Source of the DNA: a virus
Lineage: Duplodnaviria; Heunggongvirae; Uroviricota; Caudoviricetes
Length of the DNA stretch: 29,605 bases
Strand: one strand, 5' to 3'
IMG/VR virus record: IMGVR_UViG_2547132415_000023
The translations under genes were made by a program, and so were the position numbers. Shown here in pieces: positions 1,244 through 24,418 of this stretch (positions are counted from its first letter, which is position 1; each line of letters begins with the position of its first letter). The notes beneath the pieces are model-generated. The model saw only the letters and a list, made by a program, of their open reading frames with translations. It did no database searches and was not told the DNA's origin.

Positions 1244-1582
1244 TTATTCGCAAAGTGCTGTTGCGGCATCCATTACAGGATCCAAAGGAATTTTTACACC
1301 TGCATACTCTGGACTGTCTTTCCAAACAGCATCAATATTGCTCCCCTCAAGCTTTCCAGACTTTACTCCATCAATAGCAAAACCATTTAATGGGTATCGG
1401 TCATCAGTTGCTTTGTCGTATACAAAGGCATACTTACCGTTAACGCAAGACACCGTAGCTTTTTCAAAAGTTAACGGCCAATCCTCACCAAACTTAGCGC
1501 CATCTAAATCCTGTGTTTTTTCAGCGGCTAAGGAGCCAAAAGAAAAGGTAAGAAGCATAGCTAAAAAGAGTTTACGTTTCAT
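1244..1582 (-). CDS. Small secreted protein (cleavable signal peptide), cargo gene between cI and int; possibly YebY/DUF2511-like
   Basis: Likely true start at MKRKLFLAMLLTFSFGSLAAE (ATG at 1580-1582) with RBS AAGGGA upstream; the longer ORF to 1654 would overlap cI. N-terminus is basic then hydrophobic with an A-x-A-like cleavage site; two Cys in the mature part. It starts 9 nt after the cI stop on the same strand. Confidence 0.6.
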   Translation of the reverse strand: MKRKLFLAMLLTFSFGSLAAEKTQDLDGAKFGEDWPLTFEKATVSCVNGKYAFVYDKATDDRYPLNGFAIDGVKSGKLEGSNIDAVWKDSPEYAGVKIPLDPVMDAATALCE

Positions 1583-1590
1583 AATTTCCC

Positions 1591-2451
1591 TTATACGTGT
1601 TTTTCCAATGTGAAAACTACAACCCCGGCAGGCGTAATGTCGGTAATGTTGCATTCAAACTCAGCAGACTTATTTGACAACCTGACTTTTCCACCAGGTA
1701 AACGAATTACATCAAAAACATCAAGAGCGCCGTCGATATCAATTAACCAGCGACCATTACTTATATTCGAAGCAGAACAGTCGACAAGCCAAGAGGCAGC
1801 TACACCGTCAACAAAAATCAATTCCCCTGAGTTAGAAGGAATCATTGAGGGGTCAGGATGCCACGTTCCTGCATCCTTAAGCTCACCAGATTCAAGACGA
1901 GATTTTTTAATAGAAAAACCAGATGTGACATCTTCCCTGTTAGCTCGCATTTGCCCCTTGCCTGTTGCTAACCATTCCAGTGACGTATCGGTATCAAGAG
2001 CGCATGTAACAACAACATCACCAGGGAAAAAATCTCGCCTTACCCATGTGCTAATTGTGCCAGAGGAAATGCCGAGCAAATCACCGAGCTCCTTTTGCAT
2101 GGTAAAGCCATACGCATCAAGAATCCTACGCAAAACGGTTTTACCACCATTCGTCATAATCTCGTCATAAAGCTCTTTGCCTTTTAACTTGCAACTGGCT
2201 CGCTCGTGATTTGCATTTGCAAGCTCTCCATTTACAAGCCAATTGATATCAGCTCCCGTGTCAAGACAACACCTAACTATGACATTGCCAGGTATTGCAT
2301 CACGCTGAACCCAGCCGCTAACGCTGTGTTTAGCGATACCTAGCAGGTCAGCCAAATCCTTTTGCATCTTGACCCCATAGGCTGACATTAAGCGTTCCAA
2401 TACGCCGTTCGTTGCACTAACACGCCACTGAACATCAAGCTCAGAACTCAT
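1591..2451 (-). CDS. cI: 186-type CI immunity repressor with tandemly duplicated N-terminal HTH domain
   Basis: 286 aa. Residues ~14-75 (VLERLMSAYGVKMQKDLADLLGIAKHSVSGWVQRDAIPGNVIVRCCLDTGADINWLVNGE) and ~102-163 (VLRRILDAYGFTMQKELGDLLGISSGTISTWVRRDFFPGDVVVTCALDTDTSLEWLATGK) are clear internal repeats of a phage CI-type HTH domain. Divergent from the apl/cII operon and upstream of int, as in 186. Confidence 0.85.
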   Translation of the reverse strand: MSSELDVQWRVSATNGVLERLMSAYGVKMQKDLADLLGIAKHSVSGWVQRDAIPGNVIVRCCLDTGADINWLVNGELANANHERASCKLKGKELYDEIMTNGGKTVLRRILDAYGFTMQKELGDLLGISSGTISTWVRRDFFPGDVVVTCALDTDTSLEWLATGKGQMRANREDVTSGFSIKKSRLESGELKDAGTWHPDPSMIPSNSGELIFVDGVAASWLVDCSASNISNGRWLIDIDGALDVFDVIRLPGGKVRLSNKSAEFECNITDITPAGVVVFTLEKHV

Positions 2452-2976: not shown

Positions 2977-3486
2977 ATGTTTGATTTTCAGGTTTCCAAA
3001 CATCCCCACTATGACGAAGCATGCCGCATTTTCGCACAGCGTCACAACATGGCGAAGCTGGCCGAGCGTGCAGGTATGAACGTTCAAACGTTACGTAACA
3101 AGCTCAACCCGGAACAGCCTCACCAGTTCACGCCGTCTGAATTGTGGCTGCTGACTGACCTGACCGAAGACTCAACCCTCATTGATGGTTTTTTAGCGCA
3201 GATTCACTGCCTACCATGCGTGCCGGTTAATGAGTTGGCTAAAGACAAATTGCAGTCTTATGTCATGCGCGCAATGCGTGAACTCGGCGAACTGGCGAGC
3301 GGCGCGGTATCTGATGAACGTCTGACCATTGCCCGTAAGCACAACATGATTGAAAGCGTTAACTCCGGCATTCGCATGTTGTCATTGTCGGCTCTGGCGC
3401 TGCATGCACGTCTGCAGACTAATCCAGCTATGTCGAGCGTGGTCGATACCATGAGCGGTATTGGCGCATCGTTTGGTCTGATTTGA
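2977..3486 (+). CDS. cII: 186-type CII lysogeny-establishment activator
   Basis: Sequence from MFDFQVSKHPHYDEACRIFAQRHNMAKLAERAGMNVQTLRNKLNPEQPHQF is CII-like with an HTH. I chose the ATG at 2977; the track ORF starts at 2947 in the same frame. Confidence 0.8.
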   Translation: MFDFQVSKHPHYDEACRIFAQRHNMAKLAERAGMNVQTLRNKLNPEQPHQFTPSELWLLTDLTEDSTLIDGFLAQIHCLPCVPVNELAKDKLQSYVMRAMRELGELASGAVSDERLTIARKHNMIESVNSGIRMLSLSALALHARLQTNPAMSSVVDTMSGIGASFGLI

Positions 3487-3493
3487 GGTGCGT

Positions 3494-3694
3494 ATGCTGA
3501 AAAGTGAACCGTCATTCGCATCTCTGCTCGTTAAGCAAAGCCCCGGCATGCACTACGGCCACGGCTGGATCGCAGGTAAGGACGGCAAGCGCTGGCACCC
3601 GAGCCACTCGCAGGCTGATTTACTGGCTGGCCTCTCTACTCAAAAGCGGGGGGGATCATGGCTATCGAAGCTGTTTCCGCGACTGTTCCGCTAA
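3494..3694 (+). CDS. Hypothetical small early protein (fil-position ORF)
   Basis: ATG at 3494 preceded by GAGGTG RBS; 66 aa; in the early operon after cII. No recognisable motif. Confidence 0.4.
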   Translation: MLKSEPSFASLLVKQSPGMHYGHGWIAGKDGKRWHPSHSQADLLAGLSTQKRGGSWLSKLFPRLFR

Positions 3695-3996
3695 AAGCGG
3701 GTGAACGTCTGGCCGGTCTCAATCATGTTGCCGAATTGCGCGCGAGATATTGGGGCGATAGCTGGAAAGAGGTTGAACGTTTTGTCGATGATATGCGCGA
3801 TAAACGTGACCCACAATTTGAAGAAAATAATCGGGCGCTGGCCGCTATTTTCTTTCTGGCAAAAATACCGGCGGCTCGTCATGAACTCGAATTAAGTGAG
3901 CTGACTACTGACGAGAAAAAGGCGCTTATTACAGCGATGAATCATTTTCGTGCAGTAGTGAGCTTATTTCCCAAACGGCTAACCATGCCGAATTAA
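3658..3996 (+). CDS. Hypothetical early protein
   Basis: 112 aa ORF in the rightward early operon, overlapping the previous ORF by ~37 nt. Not recognised. Confidence 0.45.
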   Translation: MAIEAVSATVPLKAGERLAGLNHVAELRARYWGDSWKEVERFVDDMRDKRDPQFEENNRALAAIFFLAKIPAARHELELSELTTDEKKALITAMNHFRAVVSLFPKRLTMPN

Positions 3997-4063
3997 TCCA
4001 AACAGAAATTTAATGGCGTAAACCCGCCGGGCATCTTATTGCCCGAAATCAGGAGAGTTAATT

Positions 4064-4291
4064 ATGCGTAATACCGAAATCCGTAGTTTTAACACTGATA
4101 GCGATGCGCTGGCCGTATTGCTGACCGATGCAAAAAAAGAAGAGCGTAAAGACCGCGCGCTCGCTGTTTCCATCCGCCTTGAGGCGCTGGCTATCCATAT
4201 TACCAGAGAGGGAATGAGCGGCACCGAAGCTGCCGAACTGCTGCGCCGTGAAGCAACCCGCTTTGAGAATGAATCACAGGAGCTGCACTAA
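4064..4291 (+). CDS. Hypothetical early protein
   Basis: 75 aa, RBS AGGAGAG upstream; its stop overlaps the next start (TAATG). Confidence 0.5.
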   Translation: MRNTEIRSFNTDSDALAVLLTDAKKEERKDRALAVSIRLEALAIHITREGMSGTEAAELLRREATRFENESQELH

Positions 4292-4512
4292 TGGCCGACG
4301 CAATGGATTTAGCACAACTGCGCGAGCAGGAAGACCGCGAACGCCACATCAGCAACGCACGCACCCGTATCGCTGCACCTTCCCGTTTTCTTTGCGAGGA
4401 ATGTGACGCACCAATCCCGGAAGCTCGCCGCATTGCGATTCCGGGCGTGGCTTTTTGCGTAACCTGCCAGCAAATCGCAGAGCTAAAAAACAAACACTAT
4501 CGGGGGGTATAA
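4291..4512 (+). CDS. TraR/DksA-family C4 zinc-finger protein
   Basis: 73 aa with CEECDAPIP....CVTCQ four-cysteine motif near the C-terminus; immediately upstream of gene A. Confidence 0.75.
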   Translation: MADAMDLAQLREQEDRERHISNARTRIAAPSRFLCEECDAPIPEARRIAIPGVAFCVTCQQIAELKNKHYRGV

Positions 4513-4513
4513 A

Positions 4514-6736
4514 TTGGCTGTTCAATTCGCTTATCCGTGGAACGTCCCACGGTCGGCAATCTCCAGCCCATACCTTACTTATGAGCAACAGCATCGCCGC
4601 GACCGTATGTTCGCGGCTTTGCTGCATGCAAAAAAGGTGCTTTCTCTCCAGCCCGACTGCGTGCGGTTAGATGTTTATCGCACTGCTGCGGTGCTGGAGC
4701 AAAATCAGGGTAGTCAACGAGCCAATGCATTTTTAATCAACTTCTGCAAAAAGGCATTGCCGCGTCTTGAAATGGTCGCAAAAAAATACGAATGCGCTGG
4801 TATCAACAGCAAGGTATCAACCGCTGTTTTTGGAAGTCATTTTGATACTCAGCAAATGCAATATCTGTCGTCACGCATGGTTAATATGGTCGCCCGATAT
4901 AACCGTCTCCCGGATATGTCGCGCGCTGATGTTGACCTGTTGGCCGCTGATATTGCTAATTTCATTCGTGGTGAACTTGCCAACATTAATGACCACGGAT
5001 TCGGCGAGCTTAAAACGCTGTACACCTGGTATATTCGTGCTGGCTTTATTTCCCTCCAATTTAACGTTATCCCACCACATTGGGAGCGGGTTGAAAAAAA
5101 ATATGTCGGTGCGGATGAAATCGCACCGGCTATCGCCAAAATGTTTAACGATGGGTGGTGGCGCGGTCGTTTGCGCCGTGTTGCAGCTACGTGGCGCGAA
5201 CACCTGCAAATTGCAGTCGGCAACGTCAGTAAGAAAAAAAACACTTACGCGAGTAAAAACTGCGTGACTGACTGGCGTGAACAAAAGCGCCGCACTCGTG
5301 AATTTCTCAAAGGTCTGGATCTCGAAGACGAAGACGGCAACCGTATCAGCCTGATTGAAAAATATGATGGCTCAGTTGCTAACCCTGCGATTCGCCGCTG
5401 TGAGCTCATGACCCGCATTCGTGGGTTTGAAAACATCTGTAATGAGCTCGGTTATGTCGGTGAGTTTTACACTCTAACCGCGCCGTCAAAATATCACGCC
5501 ACGACTAAAGCCGGTTACCGTAACAGCAAATGGAGCGGTGCCAGCCCGGCTGACACGCAAAACTATCTAACCGGTATCTGGGCGCGTATCCGTGCCAAAC
5601 TACATCGGGAAGATGTCCGTATTTTCGGTATTCGTGTCGCCGAGCCTCATCACGACGGCACTCCACACTGGCACATGCTGATGTTCATGCTGCCGGAAGA
5701 TGTTGAATATGTTCGCTCCATCGTCCGTAAATACGCATGGAAAGAAGACCGCCACGAACTGAAAAGCGATAAATCCAAAAAAGCACGTTTCCACGCCGAG
5801 TCCATTGACCCGGAGAAAGGCAGCGCAACCGGCTATGTTGCTAAATACATCTCAAAAAATATCGACGGTTATGCTCTCGATGGTGAAACCGATGATGAAA
5901 GCGGTGAGCTGCTGAAAGAGACAGCCCCCGCCGTTTCAGCATGGGCTGCGCGCTGGCACATCCGTCAGTTTCAGTTTATTGGTGGTGCGCCGGTGACGGT
6001 TTACCGTGAGTTGCGTCGCCTCGCTGATACCGAAACCGCGCACGGTCTGAGCGTTGAGTTTGCCGCCGTCCATGATGCCGCCGACGCTGGTGACTGGGCT
6101 GGTTATGTTAATGCTCAGGGTGGGCCGTTTGTCCGTCGCGATGATTTACAGGTGCGCACACTGTATGAACCGCGTACCGAGCTTAATCAGTACGGTGAGG
6201 AAACGGTATGTATTAAGGGGGTCTACGATTCCTCCATAGGTGCAGGAAGCCCGATTTTAACCCGGCTCACTCAGTGGAAGATTGTTCCGAAGCGTGCTGT
6301 TGATTTGGCCGTTGACCTTCAGGACGGCAAAGCCGTCCCTCGGAGTTCTGTCAATAACTGTACGGGAAGCGAAAGCGATCCACCGATACTGGATTTAACA
6401 AAACCACTGAGTCGGCGTGAAAGACGAGAATTGACCAACCGACTCAGGAAGCAAAAGCCAGCAGCACGGCGAAAATTCATCCACGGAACGGATGAGCAAA
6501 ACGCAGCTATAGCTAAAACTATCGACGAGATACATCTGACAACCGGCATTAATATCAGCCGGGGCGAAGCCCTGCACCTGATGGCCGGTGGTAAAAGTTG
6601 TTTTGATGGTAAATGGCTACGCGGAACGGCCAAAGGAGAAATATTTTCCGCAGCACCATCGCATGAGGCTAAAGCTCGGAAAATCCTTAATCGTGTTGCG
6701 GCGATGGCTGAAGCATCAAAACCAATACATGAGTAA
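4514..6736 (+). CDS. A: Replication initiation endonuclease gpA (rolling-circle initiator)
   Basis: 740 aa. HxH metal motif region EPHHDGTPHWHMLMF and catalytic-tyrosine region GYVAKYISKNIDGYA are typical of P2/186 A proteins. Position after the early genes fits. Confidence 0.9.
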   Translation: MAVQFAYPWNVPRSAISSPYLTYEQQHRRDRMFAALLHAKKVLSLQPDCVRLDVYRTAAVLEQNQGSQRANAFLINFCKKALPRLEMVAKKYECAGINSKVSTAVFGSHFDTQQMQYLSSRMVNMVARYNRLPDMSRADVDLLAADIANFIRGELANINDHGFGELKTLYTWYIRAGFISLQFNVIPPHWERVEKKYVGADEIAPAIAKMFNDGWWRGRLRRVAATWREHLQIAVGNVSKKKNTYASKNCVTDWREQKRRTREFLKGLDLEDEDGNRISLIEKYDGSVANPAIRRCELMTRIRGFENICNELGYVGEFYTLTAPSKYHATTKAGYRNSKWSGASPADTQNYLTGIWARIRAKLHREDVRIFGIRVAEPHHDGTPHWHMLMFMLPEDVEYVRSIVRKYAWKEDRHELKSDKSKKARFHAESIDPEKGSATGYVAKYISKNIDGYALDGETDDESGELLKETAPAVSAWAARWHIRQFQFIGGAPVTVYRELRRLADTETAHGLSVEFAAVHDAADAGDWAGYVNAQGGPFVRRDDLQVRTLYEPRTELNQYGEETVCIKGVYDSSIGAGSPILTRLTQWKIVPKRAVDLAVDLQDGKAVPRSSVNNCTGSESDPPILDLTKPLSRRERRELTNRLRKQKPAARRKFIHGTDEQNAAIAKTIDEIHLTTGINISRGEALHLMAGGKSCFDGKWLRGTAKGEIFSAAPSHEAKARKILNRVAAMAEASKPIHE

Positions 6737-6812
6737 TTCATATCCATATCATGCACATACAGCAATCGCTCTATTCGTTTTTTTTCTTCCCATCTTTTGC
6801 CAATACGTGATA

Positions 6813-6828
6813 CTGTATAAATATACAG
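6813..6828. promoter_or_regulatory. LexA (SOS) box overlapping the promoter of the downstream small ORF
   Basis: CTGTATAAATATACAG (CTGT-N8-ACAG), within TACTGTATAAATATACAGTA, a 19/20 match to the palindromic enterobacterial SOS-box consensus. 22 bp upstream of the ORF starting at 6850 (RBS GGGAGGG); possible -35 TTGCCA at 6797-6802. Confidence 0.75.
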
Positions 6829-6849
6829 TAACCCTATGGGAGGGATTTC

Positions 6850-7032
6850 ATGGTTGGCGAACATTTCAGCCGAACGCAGCAAAAGTGGGCTTGTGTGCAA
6901 TTTATTGCCGAGGTATCTCTGATTGCAAACTGCAAGCCATCAGACTTAAAGCTCGCGCTCACTCTCATTGCAGACCTAGCAAACAGCGAAAATAACGAAA
7001 CCGAAGATGATAATTTTTATAAGGCTGATTAG
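6850..7032 (+). CDS. SOS-controlled small protein, candidate Tum-like antirepressor N-terminal part
   Basis: 60 aa ORF directly behind the LexA box with a strong RBS. Ends at TAG 7030-7032, in frame with the following DinI-like ORF. Confidence 0.5.
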   Translation: MVGEHFSRTQQKWACVQFIAEVSLIANCKPSDLKLALTLIADLANSENNETEDDNFYKAD

Positions 7033-7035
7033 ATT

Positions 7036-7266
7036 ATGAGAATCAATATCACGTTGGATAAAGAGCAAAAATTAGGGCAACAGATCATTGATGCTTTTCA
7101 GAATGAAATAACACATCGAGTACAATGCGTTTTTCCTGCAACAAAAGTTAACGTTAAGAAAGGGTCAATGACTAGTGTAGAGGCTATCGGATTCGATAAA
7201 GAGACGGACAGAGAAACATTAGGCAGCATATTACAAGAGATTTGGGAAGACGATAGCTGGCGTTAA
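7036..7266 (+). CDS. DinI-family protein
   Basis: 76 aa: MRINITLDK...IIDAF..EITHRVQCVFP...ILQEIWEDDSW matches the DinI pattern (MRIEVTI...RRIQYAFP...ILQETWE..DDW). Same frame as the preceding ORF. Confidence 0.75.
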   Translation: MRINITLDKEQKLGQQIIDAFQNEITHRVQCVFPATKVNVKKGSMTSVEAIGFDKETDRETLGSILQEIWEDDSWR

Positions 7267-7308
7267 ACATAATAACCGTGCTGGCGCAAAAACTAGCTTT
7301 TTGCGTCG

Positions 7309-7349
7309 GCGGGGTTGAGTAACGAGCCCACGAGGCTTAAGTCCTGCCT
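7309..7349. repeat. Imperfect ~40-bp direct repeat, copy 1
   Basis: GGCGGGGTTGAGTAACGAGCCCACGAGGC... compared with GGCGGGGTTGAACAACGAGCTACGCGAGGC... at 7711; each follows a small hairpin placed just after a stop codon. Confidence 0.45.
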
Positions 7350-7465
7350 TTCAAAATTTCTCAATGTGCTATTAATGACACGCCCATGATTAATGAGGCA
7401 TGACCTGAGATGGTTTTATAGTGGCGTTTTGACGGCACTGATTAAAATTCATTGAGGGCGATAAT

Positions 7466-7693
7466 ATGCATCGACTATCAGGTGAAATTCCGCATCACAA
7501 AACCAAAAGCATCAAACTGATGGCCATCGTTCATCGTCTGCAGCAGATAATGGTCAATGAGAATTTGACACCCACAGAGCTGGTCGGGTGTGCCGAAATA
7601 GTCAGGGATAATTACGGCAAGCTGGATAGCATCAGCAGGCCGATACAATACGCCCCCCACCACGTCGACGATAGCAAACGTCGTCAGCGCTGA
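7466..7693 (+). CDS. Hypothetical small protein
   Basis: 75 aa ORF with GAGGGCG RBS, bracketed by the two ~40-bp direct repeats. No recognisable motif. Confidence 0.35.
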   Translation: MHRLSGEIPHHKTKSIKLMAIVHRLQQIMVNENLTPTELVGCAEIVRDNYGKLDSISRPIQYAPHHVDDSKRRQR

Positions 7694-7710
7694 AACTTGT
7701 TTTCAGGGCT

Positions 7711-7752
7711 GGCGGGGTTGAACAACGAGCTACGCGAGGCGTTAGCCCGCCC
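7711..7752. repeat. Imperfect ~40-bp direct repeat, copy 2
   Basis: See copy 1; about 80% identical over ~40 bp. Confidence 0.45.
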
Positions 7753-7956
7753 CGTAGAGACCGCTCCAAACCGTCGCCCTGAATGCCGGTTTTTTTATGT
7801 CATTTTCCCGCGATTTCCCCGTTTTTTAGCCGTGCATGCATCAGGTGCATGGTTTTGCATGCGTCAGTCTTGCCCCTTCTGTCCGTGCGCCGCCAGAGCT
7901 GGCGCGGATCCAGAGTTGTCATGCAACTGCATTAAAACCGACCCATAAAGCGGGCA

Positions 7957-7975
7957 GGCGTGGCGGGGAAAGCAT
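7957..7975 (+). other. cos site (19-nt cohesive-end sequence) of a P2/186-type phage
   Basis: GGCGTGGCGGGGAAAGCAT followed by TGCGCGC matches my recollection of the P2/186 cohesive ends (P2 GGCGAGGCGGGGAAAGCAC). Orientation agrees with a leftward portal gene to its right. Confidence 0.55.
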
Positions 7976-8239
7976 TGCGCGCAACGAACAAAAATGATTT
8001 TTGGAACTTTGATTGTTTTGGCAACGTTGTCTTAATGTAGTTGATGTCTAATGACTTATGTGCTGTCATAGCGGCAATAGCTTGTATGACTCTTATCGAT
8101 AGACTAATTAAATTATATAAATCAGATTACTAATGTGCTAAAGCGATTATAAGACTAACTCCATCATAAATTAAAGAATTAAGTTAGTCTGTTAAAATAG
8201 GTGAATTGAGAGAAAGTAATTTATAAATTAGGAGGAAAT

Positions 8240-9568
8240 ATGAATTGTAATGAACTTTTTTATTCCGCTGACAACCATGCATTAACGTTGCATGAAAGAA
8301 CAAAGTTATCTACGGTTGTTTTAGATAAAGGCATTACAAAAAAGAATGAATTAATAGAGTTTTTGAGAGAGGAATTAAAAGGGTCATTTGGTTGCGACGT
8401 TAAGTTTTGGTTGCAAGGATCATACAAAAGTCACACTCTCATTAAGCCTGTTGATAAGTTTTCTTCATATGATATTGATGTGGGCATTTATTTGTTCTTT
8501 GATGCAGAGGCTGAAGAGATTAATTCAAAGGATGTAAAGGATACGTTGAAAGATGCTTTACTATCTTACTGCGAAATAAATAACGAGGCGAAGATTCAGG
8601 AGTCAAAGAATGCGTGTGAGGGATTAATATTCTCCTCCTTTCTTACAATCGACACCCCTATCTATTATAAAACAACGACAAAAGTAAAACTTGCAACAGA
8701 TAAAGGTTGGAGTGATAGCGATCCAAAAGCTATACAAGACTGGTTAACAAATTCACATGCTACAAAACCAGCTAGAGCATTAATGAAACGGCTCGTCCGT
8801 TACTTTAAAGCATGGGTTAATGTACAGTGGCACGGTACTTCATTTAAAAAAATACCTTCGTTAGCGATAAATGTCCTAGTTGCTAATAACTTAAGTATCC
8901 ATGATAGAGAGGACGATTGTTTTATATATACAGTGTTAGCTATTTGTGAGCAATTAGAGCGCTCAATGGAAGTAGAGAATCCTCTTAATGGCACCAATTT
9001 GCTTGCGATGCCTGATGATGCTTTAACTTTCGCGCATCAAAAGCTTCAACAATTGAAGAAAGTTTGTATAGATTGTATAGATGCCAACGAAAATGAAAGG
9101 AATATAAATTTTTCTAATTTATTCCAACATTATTTCCCTCAGGTAACGATCGTATCAAACGGAGGGGGAACTGGTCTGCCAGCGATTACTACAACCCCAG
9201 AAATATCTGTCTGTCGTTATGATAAACATGGTTCCCACATTGAAACTGTCTTAACGGATCAGTTAACGGTTGATAAAGGTGACTCATTAACATTCACCAT
9301 TTGTAATCCTGGGGCTTTTAGCCCTTATGCTCAGACGAAATGGACGGTTAGAAATGTTGGTAGCCAAGCTAATGATGCCAATGATATAGGGCACATTGAA
9401 TATGGAAAACCCAACGAAAGTCATAAACGGGGAACGTCTTATACTGGCTCGCATACGATGGAATGTATGGTTACTTACAATGGCGCTGTTTTAGGTTTAA
9501 AAGTTATTCAAGTTATAGTACGGCCTGCAATTTCTGTTAAAAGACCTATTAGAAAGTTTTGGAGATGA
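8240..9568 (+). CDS. cGAS/DncV-like (SMODS-type) nucleotidyltransferase with C-terminal extension; candidate signal synthase of a defence module
   Basis: 442 aa, strong RBS AGGAGG at 8231-8236. Pol-beta NTase signature G60-S61 ... D78-I-D80 (QGSYKSHTLIKPVDKFSSYDIDVGIYLF), with further acidic residues downstream. About 140 C-terminal residues are Gly/Thr/Ser-rich and beta-like with no recognised match. Low-GC gene. Confidence 0.7.
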   Translation: MNCNELFYSADNHALTLHERTKLSTVVLDKGITKKNELIEFLREELKGSFGCDVKFWLQGSYKSHTLIKPVDKFSSYDIDVGIYLFFDAEAEEINSKDVKDTLKDALLSYCEINNEAKIQESKNACEGLIFSSFLTIDTPIYYKTTTKVKLATDKGWSDSDPKAIQDWLTNSHATKPARALMKRLVRYFKAWVNVQWHGTSFKKIPSLAINVLVANNLSIHDREDDCFIYTVLAICEQLERSMEVENPLNGTNLLAMPDDALTFAHQKLQQLKKVCIDCIDANENERNINFSNLFQHYFPQVTIVSNGGGTGLPAITTTPEISVCRYDKHGSHIETVLTDQLTVDKGDSLTFTICNPGAFSPYAQTKWTVRNVGSQANDANDIGHIEYGKPNESHKRGTSYTGSHTMECMVTYNGAVLGLKVIQVIVRPAISVKRPIRKFWR

Positions 9569-9572
9569 TAGT

Positions 9573-10151
9573 ATGTGGGAACTAATGCCACCAAAAGCTA
9601 AATACGGCTTATCAATTGGAATTTCTATTCTTATCTTCCTTATGTATAAGGAATGTTTTAAGTTTCCTTTTGCTAGATCTATCTCCTTTACGATCAGTAC
9701 CATTACCATCCTTGCTTGGTTATTTGGAAAGTATTTATGGAAATATATTTATTTTGGTATCTTTAAACGGAATTTTTGCCCAGATTTTAATGGCACGTGG
9801 ACGGCTACGATAAAATCAAATTTTAGCCCGAATACTCAGGTTGAATTTCCATTAAAGATAGAGGCTAATTTCTTCTCTGTTAAGATGACAGGCAATACCA
9901 CTATCGGAAGAACCTACACAAATCTATGTAAAATTGTTCGTGCAGAAGATGATAGTTTCGAGTTGGTATATATGTTTAGAGTTATGAATGACTCTCCATC
10001 TGATTCTGATGCTGTTTTCTATGAAGGGGCGGCGAGGTTACGTGTAGTTGACATTGACTCTATGCAAATGATAGGGGTCTTTTGGACAAATCGATGTTGG
10101 CAAAATAATTTAAACACTGCTGGTTCTATAACTTTAACGAAACAGAGTTAG
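9573..10151 (+). CDS. Small membrane effector candidate: two N-terminal TM helices plus beta-rich C-terminal domain (Cap15-like)
   Basis: 192 aa, starts 4 nt after the NTase stop with its own GGAG RBS. Hydrophobic segments LSIGISILIFLMY (~13-25) and ISFTISTITILAWLF (~37-51); the C-terminal ~130 aa shows alternating hydrophobic patterns suggesting beta strands. Confidence 0.65.
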   Translation: MWELMPPKAKYGLSIGISILIFLMYKECFKFPFARSISFTISTITILAWLFGKYLWKYIYFGIFKRNFCPDFNGTWTATIKSNFSPNTQVEFPLKIEANFFSVKMTGNTTIGRTYTNLCKIVRAEDDSFELVYMFRVMNDSPSDSDAVFYEGAARLRVVDIDSMQMIGVFWTNRCWQNNLNTAGSITLTKQS

Positions 10152-10207
10152 CTTTCATTAATTTCAATCCTACTTTTCTTGGGTCAGGATTAACAGACTC
10201 TGTCAGA

Positions 10208-10238
10208 GTTGGTACGTACCATTTAGTTGGTACGTACC
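10208..10238. repeat. Tandem pair of 10-bp perfect palindromes (GTTGGTACGTACC x2)
   Basis: GTTGGTACGTACC at 10208-10220 and 10226-10238, each containing GGTACGTACC; adjacent CTCTG-T-CAGAG inverted repeat at ~10198-10208. In the convergent gap between the 2TM gene and portal gene ends. Confidence 0.5.
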
Positions 10239-10245
10239 CTATCAT

Positions 10246-11262
10246 CTAATCCTCGTCAATACTGTAATCCTTGAAGCGGACCACTTCCATTCCCAGCCAG
10301 TCATTAATTTCTTTAAATCGCTCCTGCAACGGTGTCAGCTCATTACGTACGAACACCTTTGCCACCTTCTCAACATCACCGAGCGACGCGATGTTTTCAG
10401 GCTTGCCCCCCATTAGCTGGAACGGCACGCGGTGTGCATCGAGCAGGTCAGCGGCGCTCACCTTTTTAATGTTAAAGAAATCATCTTTCGTCGCGACCTC
10501 ACTCAAAGGCACGATCTTGATGCCGTCGGGTTTACCGTTTGGCGCATAGAAAAACAGGTTTTTAAAATTCCCTAGTCCTTTTGAGTCACGCATGGCCGAG
10601 CGCAGCGCATCAACATCCGTGCTGCTTTGTGCCGCATCGGTCACATACATGATGTAACCCGCATGCGCCCCGTTCTGGTAATACTTGCGACGAAAAAGCG
10701 TGGCGGATTCATTCAGCCACGCGGAATTGAGTGCGCTCAGGTATTCCGGCATGCCATAAAGCTCCTGATTGATGTCAGGCTCCAGCAGGTGAAACACCGA
10801 GCCGGGTGCGAACTGGTGCGGGTTGTTAAAACTCGAAATGTACCAGTAAACTCCATCCTCAACGCCACGACGGGTATATTTAGCAGGTGATGTTTCCAGT
10901 TTTATAAGCTGGCCGGTGACGCTCATGCGCTTCTCAAGATAGCCGTTGGCAAAGACCAGATAATCCAGTACGAGGCGGCTGAAATCCTGACGTGACAGCA
11001 GCGGGTGCGGGATGTAGGTACTCGCCAGAATGTTACGTTTCACGTAAATCGGCGAGCTGTGATGAACGGCGGCGCGCAGGCTTTTTGCCAGACCAGAGAA
11101 GTTGACCGGCGGCTCGTACCACTTACCGTTATTGATGCACTCGACATAATCGAGGATATCGCGACGATCCAGAACGGCAGAGGGCTCGCCAAAGGTGAAC
11201 GCCTCCATTTTTTGCGGTGCGCTAACGGTCGTTGTGGTGGGTATCTTCAGTTGCTTTTTCAT
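10246..11262 (-). CDS. Q: Portal protein gpQ
   Basis: 338 aa, size and position (leftward, next to cos, preceding P) match P2 Q. Confidence 0.9.
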   Translation of the reverse strand: MKKQLKIPTTTTVSAPQKMEAFTFGEPSAVLDRRDILDYVECINNGKWYEPPVNFSGLAKSLRAAVHHSSPIYVKRNILASTYIPHPLLSRQDFSRLVLDYLVFANGYLEKRMSVTGQLIKLETSPAKYTRRGVEDGVYWYISSFNNPHQFAPGSVFHLLEPDINQELYGMPEYLSALNSAWLNESATLFRRKYYQNGAHAGYIMYVTDAAQSSTDVDALRSAMRDSKGLGNFKNLFFYAPNGKPDGIKIVPLSEVATKDDFFNIKKVSAADLLDAHRVPFQLMGGKPENIASLGDVEKVAKVFVRNELTPLQERFKEINDWLGMEVVRFKDYSIDED

Positions 11263-13198: not shown

Positions 13199-14053
13199 AT
13201 GGCAAAAAAAGTCTCAAAATTCTTTCGCATCGGCGTCGAGGGTGACACCTGCGACGGCCGCATTATCAGCGGCAACGATATTCAGGAAATGGCCGAATCG
13301 TTTGACCCTCGCGTCTACGGTTGCCGCATTAACCTTGAGCATATTCGCGGTCTCTTTCCTGATGGCGACTTCAAACGCTTAGGCGATGTGGTTGAACTGA
13401 AAGCTGAAATAATTGACGACGATTCTGCGCTTAACGGCAAATGGGCGTTGTTCGCCAGAATCACCCCAACCGACGACCTGATTGCGATGAATAAAAAATT
13501 GCAGAAGGTCTACACCTCAATGGAAATTCAGCCGAATTTTGCCAATACCGGCAAATGCTACCTCGTCGGCCTTGCTGTCACCGATGACCCGGCGAGCCTC
13601 GGCACTGAATACCTCGAATTCTGCCGCAACGCGAAGCACAACCCTCTGCAGCGCTTTAAGGCCAACCCTGAAAACGTCTTTTCCGCTGCCACGCTGGCCG
13701 AACTGGAATTTGAAGACGTTCCCGATACGGTGCTAAACAGCCTGGCAGATAAGGTGAAAGCCATTTTCAGCCGTAAGCAGGTCAGCGACGATGCGCGCCT
13801 GAATGATGTGCATGAAGCGGTGACCACCGTCAGCGAGCATGTGCAGACCAACCTCACTGCGCAGGATCAGCGTCTTTCCGCTATGGAAGCCGCGCTTACC
13901 ACCTTTAAACAGGAACTGACCGGCAAGATTGAAGAAACCAGCCAGGCATTTTCCGCCCTGAAAGCCACCCTCGACAAAACCGAAAGTTTCAGCCAGCCGC
14001 GACGCACGAAAGCCAGCGGCGGTGGTGGCGATGAGCTGCTGACCGACTGCTGA
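13199..14053 (+). CDS. O: Capsid scaffolding protein gpO
   Basis: 284 aa, first gene of the rightward late operon divergent from P; size identical to P2 O. Confidence 0.85.
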   Translation: MAKKVSKFFRIGVEGDTCDGRIISGNDIQEMAESFDPRVYGCRINLEHIRGLFPDGDFKRLGDVVELKAEIIDDDSALNGKWALFARITPTDDLIAMNKKLQKVYTSMEIQPNFANTGKCYLVGLAVTDDPASLGTEYLEFCRNAKHNPLQRFKANPENVFSAATLAELEFEDVPDTVLNSLADKVKAIFSRKQVSDDARLNDVHEAVTTVSEHVQTNLTAQDQRLSAMEAALTTFKQELTGKIEETSQAFSALKATLDKTESFSQPRRTKASGGGGDELLTDC

Positions 14054-21532: not shown

Positions 21533-22512
21533 CCGCAAAATATTTTGCCATTCTGACCAATCAGGGCGCGGCGCGGCTGGCGAACGCGGCGGCACTCGGT
21601 ACCAAACTCAACCTGACGCAGATGGCCGTCGGTGATGCGAATGGTACGTTGCCGACCCCTGACCCGGCGCAGACGAAGCTCATTAACCAGAAACGCATCG
21701 CGCCGCTGAACCTGCTGACCGTTGACCCGGCCAATACCAGTCAGATTATCGCGGAACAGATTATTCCCGAGAATGAAGGTGGTTTCTGGATCCGCGAGAT
21801 TGGTCTCTATGACGATGATGGTATTCTGATTGCCGTGGCGAACTGTCCGGAGACCTACAAGCCACAACTGCAGGAGGGAAGCGGTCGCACGCAGACCATT
21901 CGCATGATTCTGATTGTGTCGAGCACATCGGCAATTACCCTGAAAATCGACCCGGCAGTCGTGCTGGCAACGCGCCAGTATGTCGACGATAAGGTTATCG
22001 AGGTGAAAGCCTATGCTGATAGTCTGCTGGCCGCGCACCTCGCCGCTGCTGACCCGCATTCGCAGTACCTCAAAACGGCGGATATTGATAAATATATTCC
22101 GGTCGGCTTTCCGCTGCCGTGGCCGCAGGCAACTCCGCCGAGTGGCTGGCTGAAATGCAACGGTGCGGCTTTTGACAAGGCGAAATATCCAAAGCTGGCC
22201 GTCGCTTATCCATCAGGTAATCTGCCTGATTTGCGTGCTGAATTTATCCGTGGGTGGGACGATGGTCGAGGGGTCGATGCGGGCCGAATTTTGCTAAGTC
22301 AGCAAGGAGCCACAGCATTTACTGAATATCATGGGGACGGAGCAACAGGGCAACCACCTCGAAATTATTACACCAATCAGGACTTTGTCAGCTATGCCGG
22401 TACTGGGTTTACTGCTTTTGGTGGAACTGATGTTCGAAAAGACGGAATCACCAATTATATTGGTGTTCGCCCGCGCAACATTGCATTTAACTACATCGTG
22501 AGGGCGGCATAA
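21529..22512 (+). CDS. H: Tail fibre protein gpH (short form)
   Basis: 327 aa with the conserved tail-fibre N-terminus MTAKYFAILTNQGAARLANA. Much shorter than P2 H (~670 aa); the last ~80 codons have lower GC. Confidence 0.8.
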   Translation: MTAKYFAILTNQGAARLANAAALGTKLNLTQMAVGDANGTLPTPDPAQTKLINQKRIAPLNLLTVDPANTSQIIAEQIIPENEGGFWIREIGLYDDDGILIAVANCPETYKPQLQEGSGRTQTIRMILIVSSTSAITLKIDPAVVLATRQYVDDKVIEVKAYADSLLAAHLAAADPHSQYLKTADIDKYIPVGFPLPWPQATPPSGWLKCNGAAFDKAKYPKLAVAYPSGNLPDLRAEFIRGWDDGRGVDAGRILLSQQGATAFTEYHGDGATGQPPRNYYTNQDFVSYAGTGFTAFGGTDVRKDGITNYIGVRPRNIAFNYIVRAA

Positions 22513-23108
22513 TGGCAAAAGCGACACTAAACAAAAACGGCATTGCCACAAAAGCTGGTGATATGACCGTCTATAACTTTGATGGCGAGACGCGCGAATA
22601 TTTATCGGCATCCGTGGAGTTTCTCGCCGTCGGCGTAGGTATTCCTGCCAACTCCTGCACCGATGCTCCCGTCGACGCGAAAGATGGTTTTGCTGTGTGC
22701 CGCGCGACCAGTCTTGATGGGTGGGAATATGTTATCGACCATCGGGGCGAGACCGTGTATGACACTGAATCCGGCCAACCTGTCGAGATAAACGGGCTCG
22801 GTGATTACCCTGATAATATGACCACCATCAAACCGCTGACGACTTATGACCGCTGGAACGGTAGCGAATGGGTTACGGATGCGGATGCACAAAAAGGCGG
22901 TCAGGTTGCGGCAGCGCAACAGAAAAAAGCCTCGCTACTGGCCGAAGCGCAAAGCACCATTAGCCTGTGGCAGACCGAGCTGCAACTCGGCATCATCAGC
23001 GACGATGACAAGGCCAACCTGATTGCATGGATGAAATACATTCAGGCGCTGAACGCGGTCGACACATCAACAGCACCGGATATCGAGTGGCCGGTAAAAC
23101 CGGAATAA
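22512..23108 (+). CDS. G: Tail fibre assembly chaperone gpG
   Basis: 198 aa, starts at the TAATG overlap with H; lower-GC 5' part and a conserved-looking C-terminus. Confidence 0.8.
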   Translation: MAKATLNKNGIATKAGDMTVYNFDGETREYLSASVEFLAVGVGIPANSCTDAPVDAKDGFAVCRATSLDGWEYVIDHRGETVYDTESGQPVEINGLGDYPDNMTTIKPLTTYDRWNGSEWVTDADAQKGGQVAAAQQKKASLLAEAQSTISLWQTELQLGIISDDDKANLIAWMKYIQALNAVDTSTAPDIEWPVKPE

Positions 23109-23113
23109 CGCAA

Positions 23114-23137
23114 GGCGGGCTGATGCCCGTCTTTTTT
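23114..23137 (+). terminator. Rho-independent terminator after the tail-fibre operon
   Basis: GGCGGGC-TGAT-GCCCGTC stem-loop followed by TTTTTT, immediately after the G stop. Confidence 0.7.
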
Positions 23138-23239
23138 ATGATTTGTTTATGTGCCATCCCCTACCCATCGCCGATAAATAGCCCCTCAAAAGACCAGCCA
23201 GGACAATAACACTTGCCCACTAACCACGGAGTTAACCGG

Positions 23240-24418
23240 ATGAGTGATTTTCACCACGGCGTGCAGGTGCTTGAGATTAACGACGGCACCCGCGTCATTT
23301 CCACTGTTGCAACCGCAATCGTCGGCATGGTCTGTACAGCCAGCGATGCGGATGCGGCAACCTTTCCCCTCAACGAGCCGGTACTGATTACCAATGTGCA
23401 AAGCGCCATTGCGAAAGCCGGTAAAAAAGGCACTCTGGCCGCGTCCCTGCAGGCCATCGCCGACCAGTCAAAACCTGTCACAGTTGTCGTGCGTGTTGCC
23501 GAAGGTACCGGAGAAGACGCCGAAGCGCAGACCATTTCCAATATCATCGGCGGCACGGATGAGAACGGTAAATATACCGGCATCAAGGCGCTGTTGACTG
23601 CCGAAGCAGTCACCGGCGTTAAGCCGCGCATTCTCGGCGTGCCGGGTCTCGATACCAAAGAGGTCGCAGTCGCACTTGCTTCGGTCTGTATCAGCCTGCG
23701 CGCGTTTGGTTATGTCAGCGCATGGGGTTGTAAAACCATTTCCGAGGCGATGGCCTATCGCGAGAATTTCAGCCAGCGCGAGCTGATGGTCATCTGGCCT
23801 GATTTCCTTGCATGGGATACCACCACAAACGCCACCGCACCGGCATACGCAACTGCGCGCGCACTCGGCCTGCGTGCCTATATCGACCAGACCGTCGGCT
23901 GGCACAAAACCCTGTCTAACGTCGGCGTGCAGGGTGTTACCGGCATCAGTGCGTCAGTGTTTTGGGATTTGCAGGCATCCGGCACCGATGCTGATCTGCT
24001 CAACGAGGCCGGGGTCACGACACTGGTGCGTAAGGATGGCTTCCGCTTTTGGGGTAACCGCACCTGCTCTGATGACCCGCTTTTCCTGTTTGAGAACTAC
24101 ACCCGCACCGCGCAGGTGCTGGCCGACACGATGGCCGAGGCGCACATGTGGGCGGTCGATAAGCCCATCACCGCATCACTTATCCGTGACATTGTCGACG
24201 GCATTAACGCCAAATTCCGCGAGCTGAAATCAAACGGCTACATCGTGGACGGTGAATGCTGGTTCGACGAGGAATCGAACGATAAGGAAACCCTCAAGGC
24301 CGGGAAACTGTATATCGACTACGACTATACACCGGTTCCACCACTGGAAAGCCTAACCCTGCGCCAGCGTATCACCGATAAATATCTGGTGGATCTGGCC
24401 GAATCGGTCAACAGCTAA
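23240..24418 (+). CDS. FI: Tail sheath protein gpFI
   Basis: Start trimmed to ATG 23240 (MSDFHHGVQVLEINDG...), 392 aa, close to P2 FI (~396 aa). Confidence 0.9.
   Translation: MSDFHHGVQVLEINDGTRVISTVATAIVGMVCTASDADAATFPLNEPVLITNVQSAIAKAGKKGTLAASLQAIADQSKPVTVVVRVAEGTGEDAEAQTISNIIGGTDENGKYTGIKALLTAEAVTGVKPRILGVPGLDTKEVAVALASVCISLRAFGYVSAWGCKTISEAMAYRENFSQRELMVIWPDFLAWDTTTNATAPAYATARALGLRAYIDQTVGWHKTLSNVGVQGVTGISASVFWDLQASGTDADLLNEAGVTTLVRKDGFRFWGNRTCSDDPLFLFENYTRTAQVLADTMAEAHMWAVDKPITASLIRDIVDGINAKFRELKSNGYIVDGECWFDEESNDKETLKAGKLYIDYDYTPVPPLESLTLRQRITDKYLVDLAESVNS

Follow-up and report, generated by a model that had tools for sequence, protein, structure and literature searches.

A probable type I CBASS operon as cargo of a cos-adjacent slot in a 186/P2-like Escherichia coli prophage

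A low-GC island between cos and the portal gene

The DNA analyzed here, referred to as the window, is a stretch of 29,605 nucleotides from a Caudoviricetes virus (IMG/VR record IMGVR_UViG_2547132415_000023), and its carrier is a 186/P2-like E. coli prophage. The features that lie around its cos site are the following, in window coordinates:

7675..7956, no strand assigned: GC-rich conserved cos flank on the gpA side, whose last base is the right end of the mature genome
7957..7975, + strand: cos cohesive-end sequence GGCGTGGCGGGGAAAGCAT, identical to the annotated 186 cos (NC_001317.1, bases 1-19)
7976..7982, no strand assigned: TGCGCGC, the last conserved bases ahead of the cargo, kept in 16 of the 17 loci compared (locus L080 differs at the last base)
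7983..10262, + strand: replaced segment (low-GC island) between the blastn breakpoints, running from the leader through the probable two-gene CBASS operon and the hairpin region into the final ~5 codons of the portal gene
7983..8239, + strand: AT-rich untranslated leader, with an AGGAGG ribosome-binding site at 8230-8235
8240..9568, + strand: CD-NTase (cyclic-oligonucleotide synthase), 442 aa, matching PF21654, PF18134, and PADLOC Cyclase
9573..10151, + strand: predicted Cap15-type effector, 192 aa, matching a PADLOC 2TM effector and, by its AF2 model, the Cap15 fold
10152..10245, no strand assigned: hairpin-rich stretch separating the effector gene from the oppositely oriented portal gene, in the place of tW/tQ in empty-slot phages
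10246..11262, - strand: portal gene (homolog of gpQ and 186 W; PF04860), the right border of the slot, its last codons lying in the variable segment

An earlier note on this DNA had pointed to a sharp drop in GC content right after cos and to its recovery at the portal stop codon (10246), and windowed calculation confirms this discontinuity. The GC content is 0.357 in the island (7976-10245) compared to 0.538 elsewhere in the window, with 500-bp bins of 0.31-0.40 within the island (8001-8500 to 9751-10250) and of 0.52-0.63 downstream, and the lowest value among the other 2270-bp stretches of the window is 0.446 (mean 0.545, n=457). The codon-usage check proposed at the same time gives a concordant picture: the two island genes have a GC3 of 0.31 and 0.34, compared to 0.62 in the portal gene and 0.73 in the terminase gene. 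By its composition, the island is foreign.

In blastn comparisons with 186 and a Yersinia Eganvirus, the 186-like homology ends at 7982 and picks up again at 10263, from which position the portal gene shows 79-80% nucleotide identity to 186 W; the large terminase gene comes next. The left edge of the island thereby stands 7 nt beyond the cohesive end, and its right edge falls within the last portal codons. A stretch of about 190 bp that comprises the tW/tQ terminator and the final ~5 codons of the portal gene has been exchanged for about 2280 bp, which represents a net gain of ~2.09 kb. The distance between cos and the portal stop amounts to 2270 bp in the window, 176 bp in 186, and 167 bp in P2; the ~100 bp that the earlier note had assumed for P2 has to be corrected, and the ~2.2-kb foreign insertion that it had recognized between cos and the portal gene stands, with breakpoints at 7983 and 10262.

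Regarding the cos side, window positions 7957-7982 are 100% identical to bases 1-26 of the phage 186 record, whose right end aligns through position 7956, and of 80 related loci, 79 contain the cos sequence with 0-3 mismatches. The island starts right after this cos, which is identical to that of 186, and its proposed position at the left extremity of the packaged genome is borne out. The flank at 7675..7956 is 86-93% identical to 186 and to Yersinia, Salmonella, and Erwinia Peduoviridae, and the 30 nt preceding cos are kept in all 17 loci compared. Read from the sequence, TGCGCGC forms with GCGGGCA (7950-7956) an imperfect inverted repeat (6/7) around both nick sites.

On both sides of the coding part, the island carries putative regulatory elements. 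A block of 32 nt in the leader (8040-8071), conserved at 27 of 32 positions in a three-way alignment with the copies of two related loci, L096 and L093, is a candidate promoter or operator; promoter scans of the leader + strand found no consensus sigma-70 promoter. At the portal end, the segment 10152-10250 folds to three hairpins (-30.9 kcal/mol, z = -5.2), in agreement with the previous description of the island as bounded by cos on one side and by a palindrome-rich segment on the other. The strongest hairpin, with a perfect 11-bp stem (10211-10238), consists of two copies of the palindrome GGTACGTACC, and this double palindrome is kept with the same 18-bp spacing in L096 and L093. The hairpin spacer could act as a terminator, and no U-tract adjoins its hairpins on either strand.

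A cyclase gene and a predicted Cap15-type effector gene

Only two ORFs of at least 100 aa are found in the island, with cos and the portal gene as flanks; both point away from cos, toward the late P-Q (terminase-portal) operon, which runs in the opposite direction. The first one codes for a CD-NTase with a nucleotidyltransferase core (residues ~1-300) and an AGS-C Ig-like domain (residues ~322-428, window 9203-9523). It scores 66.6 bits with PF21654 and 63.7 bits with PF18134, both exceeding the cut-offs, and matches the PADLOC Cyclase model PDLC00824 over its full length (1.3e-159). The GS...[D/E]xD...D signature is present, with G60, S61, D78, D80, and D138 invariant among 37 homologs; the three aspartates align with the catalytic aspartates D131, D133, and D193 of DncV, numbered as in the names of PDB mutant entries. 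By sequence alone, the best PDB matches are to DncV, a clade A enzyme, and the score with the NCBIfam cGAMP-synthase model is 147 for a cut-off of 150. The AF2 model (pLDDT 90) has as its top PDB structure match the CdnB of B. fragilis (7LJO, target-normalized TM 0.87), and AGS-C fusions are near-universal in CD-NTase clades B and H (10.1101/2023.05.21.541620). The enzyme is thus likely clade-B-like, an assignment that comes from its best structural match and its AGS-C fusion rather than from a phylogeny.

The second gene starts 4 bp past the cyclase stop on the same strand, and its product is predicted to have the Cap15 nucleotide-receptor fold. It matches the PADLOC 2TM effector model PDLC00682 (1e-29), and a search of the PDB with its sequence returned chance matches only, so that the link to Cap15 is drawn from structure prediction and fold search. 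More precisely, the AF2 model (pLDDT 83.8) displays the N-terminal helices and the minimal eight-stranded β-barrel receptor expected of Cap15, with hydrophobic helices at residues 7-28 and 33-59 and the C-terminal barrel at residues 74-190, and its top three PDB matches are the Y. aleksiciae Cap15 structures 7N34/7N35 (target-normalized TM 0.79-0.81, rmsd 2.6-2.9 Å). Two caveats accompany this identification: the score with Pfam Cap15_CD_rec, 28.8 bits, is slightly under the cut-off of 31.2, and the hydrophobic segments are short, with a modest hydropathy (19-residue Kyte-Doolittle maximum of 1.46 for a classical threshold of 1.6).

Given that the two ORFs stand alone with phage genes on both sides, and that no ancillary genes (Cap2/Cap3, HORMA/TRIP13, Cap6-8) accompany them, the operon would belong to type I CBASS. 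The pairing of cyclase and effector is kept in all relatives examined, and the comparison of the window, L096, and L093 copies gives dN/dS values of 0.06-0.11 at dS of ~0.9-1.5. Both genes are intact and evolve under strong purifying selection. In terms of distribution, proteins identical to those of the island are encoded on 82 and 220 contigs, with E. coli as the source of the named members. The island gave no megablast match in complete E. coli genomes, plasmids, and phage records, and the cyclase gave no tblastn match in phage records. At ~69% identity, blastn located the cassette in two complete E. coli genomes, in a different (integrase) island, and a scan of one genome per species recovered relatives at only 67-69% amino acid identity, in Vibrio, Photobacterium, and one metagenome-assembled genome.

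These data bear on the view that the cassette is not anti-phage in its present context, being either an inactive remnant or a device serving the phage itself, through lysis timing or the killing of non-lysogens. This view can draw on the fact that no promoter could be assigned and, according to a 2026 preprint, on the capacity of H-NS to silence such AT-rich cargo. However, neither ORF is disrupted, no variation is seen at the catalytic residues, and the dN/dS is low; besides, the close family members CdnB06-Cap15 defend against phages once cloned, and the gene pair also exists outside phages, in the integrase island of the two E. coli genomes, in Vibrio, and in Photobacterium. The probability of this view is considered slight.

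A recurrently used slot beside cos

The occupants of the cos-Q gap in P2-like relatives, whose survey had been suggested in the earlier note, were recorded in 79 related viral contigs or loci with portal proteins 82-97% identical. The gap ranges from 155 to 2838 bp: the slot is empty in 64 of these loci, contains small ORFs in 7, and holds low-GC cargo of 1.3-2.8 kb in 8, with at least 7 unrelated cargos overall. Comparison with 186, P2, and relatives, which had also been recommended, established that the gap normally measures 155-179 bp, which upholds the notion of an insertion in the window. Defense-type genes are represented among the cargos by GmrSD_N/NsnA-like, AAA_15/NsnB-like, and UvrD-like genes. 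The left junction falls at cos+7 in the window and in 7 of the 8 large cargos, divergence setting in immediately after TGCGCGC, and the C-terminal codons of the portal gene vary among cargos. Thirteen of 14 cargos are oriented convergently with the late P-Q operon. The gpA side varies continuously in length, from 757 to 4493 bp, and one locus reaches 9.5 kb; on the portal side, the slot is discrete and usually empty. In the P2-type prophage L096, the same island sits in the same slot, with ~80% identity over the span between cos and the portal gene, indicating that it is an old resident of this position.

This age lends some credit to the idea that the long gap is ancestral and that 186, P2, and most relatives deleted it, with no insertion taking place, since the ~80% identity connects a 186-type and a P2-type prophage. 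Nevertheless, the empty allele is a conserved, GC-rich segment of 155-179 bp with its own terminator, common to both cos variants, whereas the occupied slots hold mutually unrelated cargos, every one of them compositionally foreign (GC 0.34-0.40 vs 0.52-0.56 for the backbone). Ancestral deletion was rejected on the basis of this conserved empty allele and these unrelated foreign cargos, and its probability is very low.

The sharp boundaries and the foreign composition would also be expected of a transposon, an insertion sequence, or an integron-type cassette inserted beside cos by its own machinery. Yet, the ORF list of the island contains no transposase, integrase, or recombinase, and its ends show neither target-site duplication nor terminal inverted repeats, the longest common end strings being 4-5 nt. 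In the same line, the unrelated large cargos have neither common end homology nor target-site duplications or terminal inverted repeats, although the same slot and the same left junction serve them. Insertion by a mobile element's own machinery is thus largely refuted and retains next to no probability. Taken together, the island represents one replacement allele at a slot that is used time and again, and not a one-off insertion.

Proposed function and relation to known systems

With gpA at 4514-6736, cos at 7957-7975, and the portal gene at 10246-11262, the location fits the P2-like cos-adjacent hotspot. Rousset et al., whose data comprise 18,150 gpA-gpQ loci, indeed described the cos-adjacent gpA-gpQ interval of E. 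coli P2-like prophages as a defense hotspot, and their Table S5A includes the arrangement DinI, hypothetical, AGS_C, S_2TMBeta (Rousset et al. 2022, PMC9122126). The island is therefore most probably (roughly 0.87) a cargo allele of the cos-adjacent hotspot of P2/186-like prophages, carrying a two-gene type I CBASS abortive-infection system. Neither the identity of the cargo as type I CBASS nor its hotspot status was part of the earlier reading of the island.

By analogy with the families concerned, the operon would be expressed in the lysogen from its own leader, and infection by another phage would activate the cyclase. The activating cue may be virion assembly (prohead protease/scaffold), as judged from the tested CdnB06-Cap15 relatives: in E. 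coli, operons of this kind restrict phages, and the mutations that allow escape lie in the prohead protease scaffold domain (10.1101/2023.05.21.541620). The cyclase would then produce a cyclic dinucleotide to be bound by the Cap15 β-barrel, upon which the membrane helices of the effector would disrupt the inner membrane. Death of the infected cell before the invader matures would protect the sister lysogens, and hence the prophage.

As for its acquisition, the cassette may have come through exchange between cos-compatible elements, with a first crossover at or beside cos and a second one provided by portal-gene homology. Rousset et al. proposed recombination at cos ends together with a second homologous crossover (PMC9122126), and the exact left end of the cargo at cos+7 fits this idea. 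Because unrelated cargos have this junction in common, lack end homology, and have their second junction in the portal gene, the present data support at the sequence level the idea, published as a speculation, that cos ends seed the exchange of cargo.

A further reading goes beyond this hotspot interpretation in considering the portal side of cos as a mechanistically distinct capture site and the arrangement as a solution to prophage self-immunity. Cargo would enter via cohesive-end joining and would thereby always abut cos+7, the edge of the nick-site inverted repeat. Moreover, since a hairpin without U-tract replaces tW/tQ, late transcripts could run antisense to cap15 and the cyclase gene, and this read-through could shut CBASS down in the lytic cycle of the prophage itself. 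In P2-family phages, gpO, which is encoded at 13199-14053 in the window, is a protease-scaffold fusion. If true, the self-immunity part would be of importance, given that CdnB06-Cap15 relatives have been linked to the sensing of prohead protease/scaffold proteins. This two-part reading is considered unlikely.

Both the hotspot and the system type are already published, so that the increment is small and current understanding is unchanged. The locus nonetheless offers a clean and well-delimited natural case of a temperate phage that carries a probable CBASS at the extremity of the genome it packages, and raises the question of how a phage whose assembly proteins resemble type I CBASS triggers tolerates CBASS during induction.

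Compared to the gpA-gpQ hotspot of Rousset et al., the interval, the neighbors (gpA, DinI, cos, portal), and the short AT-rich defense cargo are the same; the hotspot is treated there as one locus, whereas here it is divided by cos into a variable gpA side and a discrete portal-side slot. In the relevant main-text passages of that paper, CBASS is not discussed as hotspot cargo (PMC9122126). The cos-adjacent hotspot of P4-like satellites likewise places variable defense cargo beside the same cos type (Rousset et al. 2022), but the present element possesses structural genes and is a full phage of the helper type, not a satellite. The exclusion genes old and tin of P2 are also defense cargo of a P2-family phage adjoining cos. 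On the P2 map, they are located on the gpA side, where the mature genome has its right end. Their proteins are unrelated to those of the cassette, which is found on the portal side, at the left end. Concerning the cassette itself, the EaCdnB-Cap15 operon of E. albertii, studied by Duncan-Lowey et al. in 2021, is reportedly a type I CBASS of the same kind. Finally, the cassette resembles in architecture the CdnB06-Cap15 type I CBASS (Richmond-Buccola et al. 2023), another two-gene operon in which a CD-NTase with a C-terminal AGS-C Ig-like domain is paired with a Cap15 effector that combines N-terminal hydrophobic helices with a β-barrel nucleotide receptor, as predicted for the island protein.

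Base composition of the cos-portal interval

Downstream of cos, the GC profile enters a sharp trough, with values of 0.31-0.40 in the 500-bp windows 8001-8500 to 9751-10250, compared to 0.54 in the cos-proximal window 7501-8000 and 0.52-0.63 in the downstream structural-gene backbone. Over its whole length (7976-10245), this island has a GC content of 0.357, while the lowest value of any other 2270-bp stretch in the window is at least 0.446 (mean 0.545, n = 457). It is filled by two plus-strand ORFs, whose GC content at the third codon position (0.31 and 0.34) departs from that of the portal (0.62), terminase (0.73) and capsid (0.69) backbone genes. On the left, the island adjoins cos itself (7957-7975, GGCGTGGCGGGGAAAGCAT, 19 bases): bases 1-26 of the phage 186 record, of which bases 1-19 are annotated as the cohesive end, are 100% identical to 7957-7982, and the right end of the same record aligns as far as 7956. 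On the right lies the portal gene, followed by the large terminase. The GC profile, the third-position values, the cos match to 186 and the portal position thereby bear out the low-GC island between cos and the portal gene described in the earlier note.

Features of the window referred to in the text
1244-1654, minus strand: phrog_2950 ORF, between the integrase and the cI repressor
4514-6736: gpA replication gene
7036-7266: DinI homolog (low GC, 0.38)
8240-9568, plus strand: cyclase (CD-NTase), 442 aa (Pfam, PADLOC, AlphaFold model)
9573-10151, plus strand: effector, 192 aa (PADLOC, AlphaFold model)
10246-11262, minus strand: portal gene (PF04860)

The distance from cos to the portal stop is 176 bp in 186, 167 bp in P2 (not the ~100 bp that the earlier note had claimed) and 2270 bp in the window, a terminator being present in the gap of both phages. 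In blastn comparisons with 186 and a Yersinia Eganvirus, the breakpoints fall at 7982/7983 and 10262/10263; ~190 bp, among them the terminator and the final few codons of the portal gene, have given way to ~2280 bp. The gap was further surveyed in 80 IMG/VR loci whose portal protein is 82-97% identical to that of the window, and in 79 of which cos could be located. Its usual size is 155-179 bp (64/79 loci), rather than that of the window; seven loci have 380-486 bp, with one small DUF2188 or DUF2158 ORF in each of the four examined, and in eight the gap measures 1299-2838 bp. These long gaps are AT-rich without exception (GC 0.34-0.40 vs 0.52-0.56 in the adjoining backbone), which, together with the prevalence of short gaps, indicates a slot that is normally empty and repeatedly filled by foreign DNA. 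The breakpoints and the survey thus uphold an insertion at this place. No transposase, terminal inverted repeats or target-site duplication was found in the island.

The CBASS cassette and its distribution

The first gene encodes a cyclase with a DncV-like nucleotidyltransferase domain and an AGS-C domain, each above the Pfam cut-off, and matches the PADLOC CBASS cyclase model over its full length (1.3e-159). The catalytic aspartates of DncV align with D78, D80 and D138, which, like G60 and S61, show no variation among 37 homologs. The AlphaFold model (pLDDT 90) is closest to Bacteroides fragilis CdnB (7LJO; target-normalised TM 0.87, rmsd 2.5 A), and residues 322-428 form a separate beta-sandwich attached via a disordered linker. 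As for the effector, it matches the PADLOC 2TM CBASS effectors (1e-29) and scores 28.8 bits against the Pfam Cap15 receptor domain, slightly below the cut-off of 31.2. Its model (pLDDT 83.8) shows two helices at the N-terminus and a barrel of eight strands, and the three best PDB matches are all to the Cap15 receptor of Yersinia aleksiciae (target-normalised TM 0.79-0.81, rmsd 2.6-2.9 A); hydropathy values of the protein are modest, and two stretches of 15-17 residues lack charges. The cassette is therefore a CBASS, probably of the CdnB(AGS-C)-Cap15 kind, and of type I because the island holds no ancillary genes.

Exact protein matches were found on 82 contigs for the cyclase and 220 for the effector, the named members being E. 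coli; Citrobacter variants belong to the same 90% cluster. In 23 of the 24 contigs read, the neighbours are mostly those of the same 186-like prophage, in the order int, cI, gpA, 60-aa ORF, DinI, 75-aa ORF, cos, cyclase, effector, portal, the remaining one being a frameshifted variant. A P2-type (Cox/RepB) prophage, L096, carries an 86% identical cyclase in the same slot, with 80% identity to the window across the whole cos-to-portal interval, leader and double palindrome included. An 84% relative, L093, is chromosomal. Its locus (ENA ERZ27238783 k111_3507, about 4346-8406) comprises a P2-type cos, the CBASS island and an apparent truncated portal (134-aa ORF); beside this remnant lies a 320-aa gene with a colicin pore-forming domain, and ordinary metabolic and chemotaxis genes flank it. 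The remnant has the look of a P2-like prophage fragment that became domesticated. In the complete E. coli genomes CP169755 and CP180600 (L008 and L009), a cassette of the same family, with ~69% DNA identity over the two genes only, lies between der and yfgJ/xseA, inside an island bearing an integrase and AlpA and devoid of a cos site; in E. coli, the CBASS module thus travels on two or more types of mobile element. Relatives with 50-72% protein identity occur in Serratia, Pectobacterium, Cronobacter, Vibrio and Photobacterium. Among the window, L096 and L093 copies, dN/dS is 0.06-0.11 at dS ~0.9-1.5 for both genes; the cassette is therefore old in the slot and maintained by purifying selection.

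Junctions, non-coding flanks and other accessory DNA

The cos site and the following TGCGCGC are kept in 16 of the 17 loci compared, empty or occupied, one locus (L080) differing at the last base. Divergence begins directly after this motif in the window, in L096 and in seven of the eight surveyed large cargos; part of the empty-gap sequence is retained before the cargo in L084 and L079. Since TGCGCGC mirrors GCGGGCA across cos at six of seven positions, the cargo start coincides with the end of a symmetric element around the nick sites, an arrangement read from the sequence that may have a functional meaning. At the right junction, each cargo comes with its own terminator hairpin and its own final 5-15 codons of the portal gene, and no sequence is shared at either end among unrelated cargos. 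Thirteen of the 14 cargos point away from cos, convergent with the portal gene. It is an idea of low probability that read-through from the late operon would shut the cassette down while the prophage itself grows lytically. The gpA side of cos, by contrast with the portal side, shows a continuous range of lengths (757-4493 bp, and 9.5 kb in one locus).

Upstream of the cyclase, the AT-rich leader of 257 nt has a conserved AGGAGG site and a 32-nt block (8040-8071) in which 27 positions are conserved in three copies otherwise rather divergent there; no acceptable sigma-70 site was found on its plus strand. A 45-aa minus-strand ORF (7932-8069), which spans cos and whose start overlaps this block, is almost certainly spurious. 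Downstream of the effector, the spacer 10152-10245 contains three hairpins (z = -5.2), the strongest of which, an 11-bp stem without U-tract, occupies the place of tW/tQ in empty-slot phages. Within 10207-10238, AGTTGGTACGTACC occurs twice, 18 bp apart, each copy including the 10-bp palindrome GGTACGTACC. L096 and L093 retain this pair despite only ~80% identity of the surrounding DNA; it may act as a hairpin terminator that lacks a U-tract or as a binding site for a protein.

The other cargos are diverse. L013 (IMG/VR 2740892281_000006) and L064 carry a two-gene cargo (a 275-aa protein, and one of 249 aa that has a hydrophobic segment at its N-terminus) without Pfam match and with only a faint ZorB3 match in PADLOC, a candidate uncharacterised defence pair. 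The slot of L084 and positions 3368-4372 of phage vB_EcoM-613R3 (L003, ON470592.1) encode a 334-aa protein, 90% identical between both phages and without family match; alone among the large cargos, it lies on the opposite strand, and it retains the initial ~50 nt of the empty-gap sequence. Cargos of 2.8 kb occupy L074 (a UvrD-like helicase of 677 aa with a 210-aa partner) and L078 (an AAA_15 ATPase of 522 aa, NsnB/PDC-M55A/AriA-like, with a 370-aa partner faintly matching PDC-M55B). Finally, L065, L080 and L090 have GmrSD_N (DUF262)/NsnA-like proteins of 369-379 aa, each with a partner of ~200-220 aa without PADLOC match, those of L080 and L090 having been compared with PADLOC alone.

Elsewhere in the window, three small genes lie on the gpA side of cos (6850-7693), where a second GC dip (0.39-0.40) is seen at 6751-7500: besides the DinI homolog, these are a 60-aa ORF (phrog_1993), whose ON470592 counterpart is annotated 'UV induction of prophage', and a 75-aa ORF (phrog_11386). 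The phrog_2950 ORF lies in a stretch of lower GC (0.41-0.45) and may be a further accessory gene; in the related prophages L010 and L011, the corresponding ORF has a YebY domain (PF10709). Only ~105 bp (23108-23213) separate the ORFs 22512-23108 and 23213-24418; if these are, as we presume from their position, the genes for tail-fibre assembly and for the sheath, the accessory locus Z/fun of P2 is empty here.

Relation to known CBASS operons and to the published hotspot

AGS-C fusions are found in ~40% of type I CBASS and nearly always belong to clades B and H; several CdnB06-Cap15 operons protect E. coli, above all against T1-like phages, and the mutations by which phages escape lie in the scaffold domain of the prohead protease (Richmond-Buccola et al., bioRxiv 10.1101/2023.05.21.541620). 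Activation loops triggered by protease were described for clades A, D and G, but not for clade B (2026 preprint, PMC12991175). According to the literature, 2',3'-cGAMP is the product of a subset of clade B02 enzymes.

The cos-proximal gpA-gpQ interval of E. coli P2-like prophages is a hotspot (18,150 loci, 1,650 arrangements) from which several defence systems were validated, and the cohesive ends were proposed to serve as recombination substrate in an exchange that a second, homologous crossover would complete (Rousset et al. 2022, PMC9122126). The observation made in the earlier note is real and its interpretation holds; the type of system and the hotspot are both known, and their arrangement has been catalogued before. 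The present data add modestly to this picture in that the hotspot is split by cos, its portal side being a discrete, mostly empty slot in which nearly all cargos converge on the late operon, and in that most large cargos begin at cos+7 without shared ends, thereby supporting the published idea of recombination at the cos ends.
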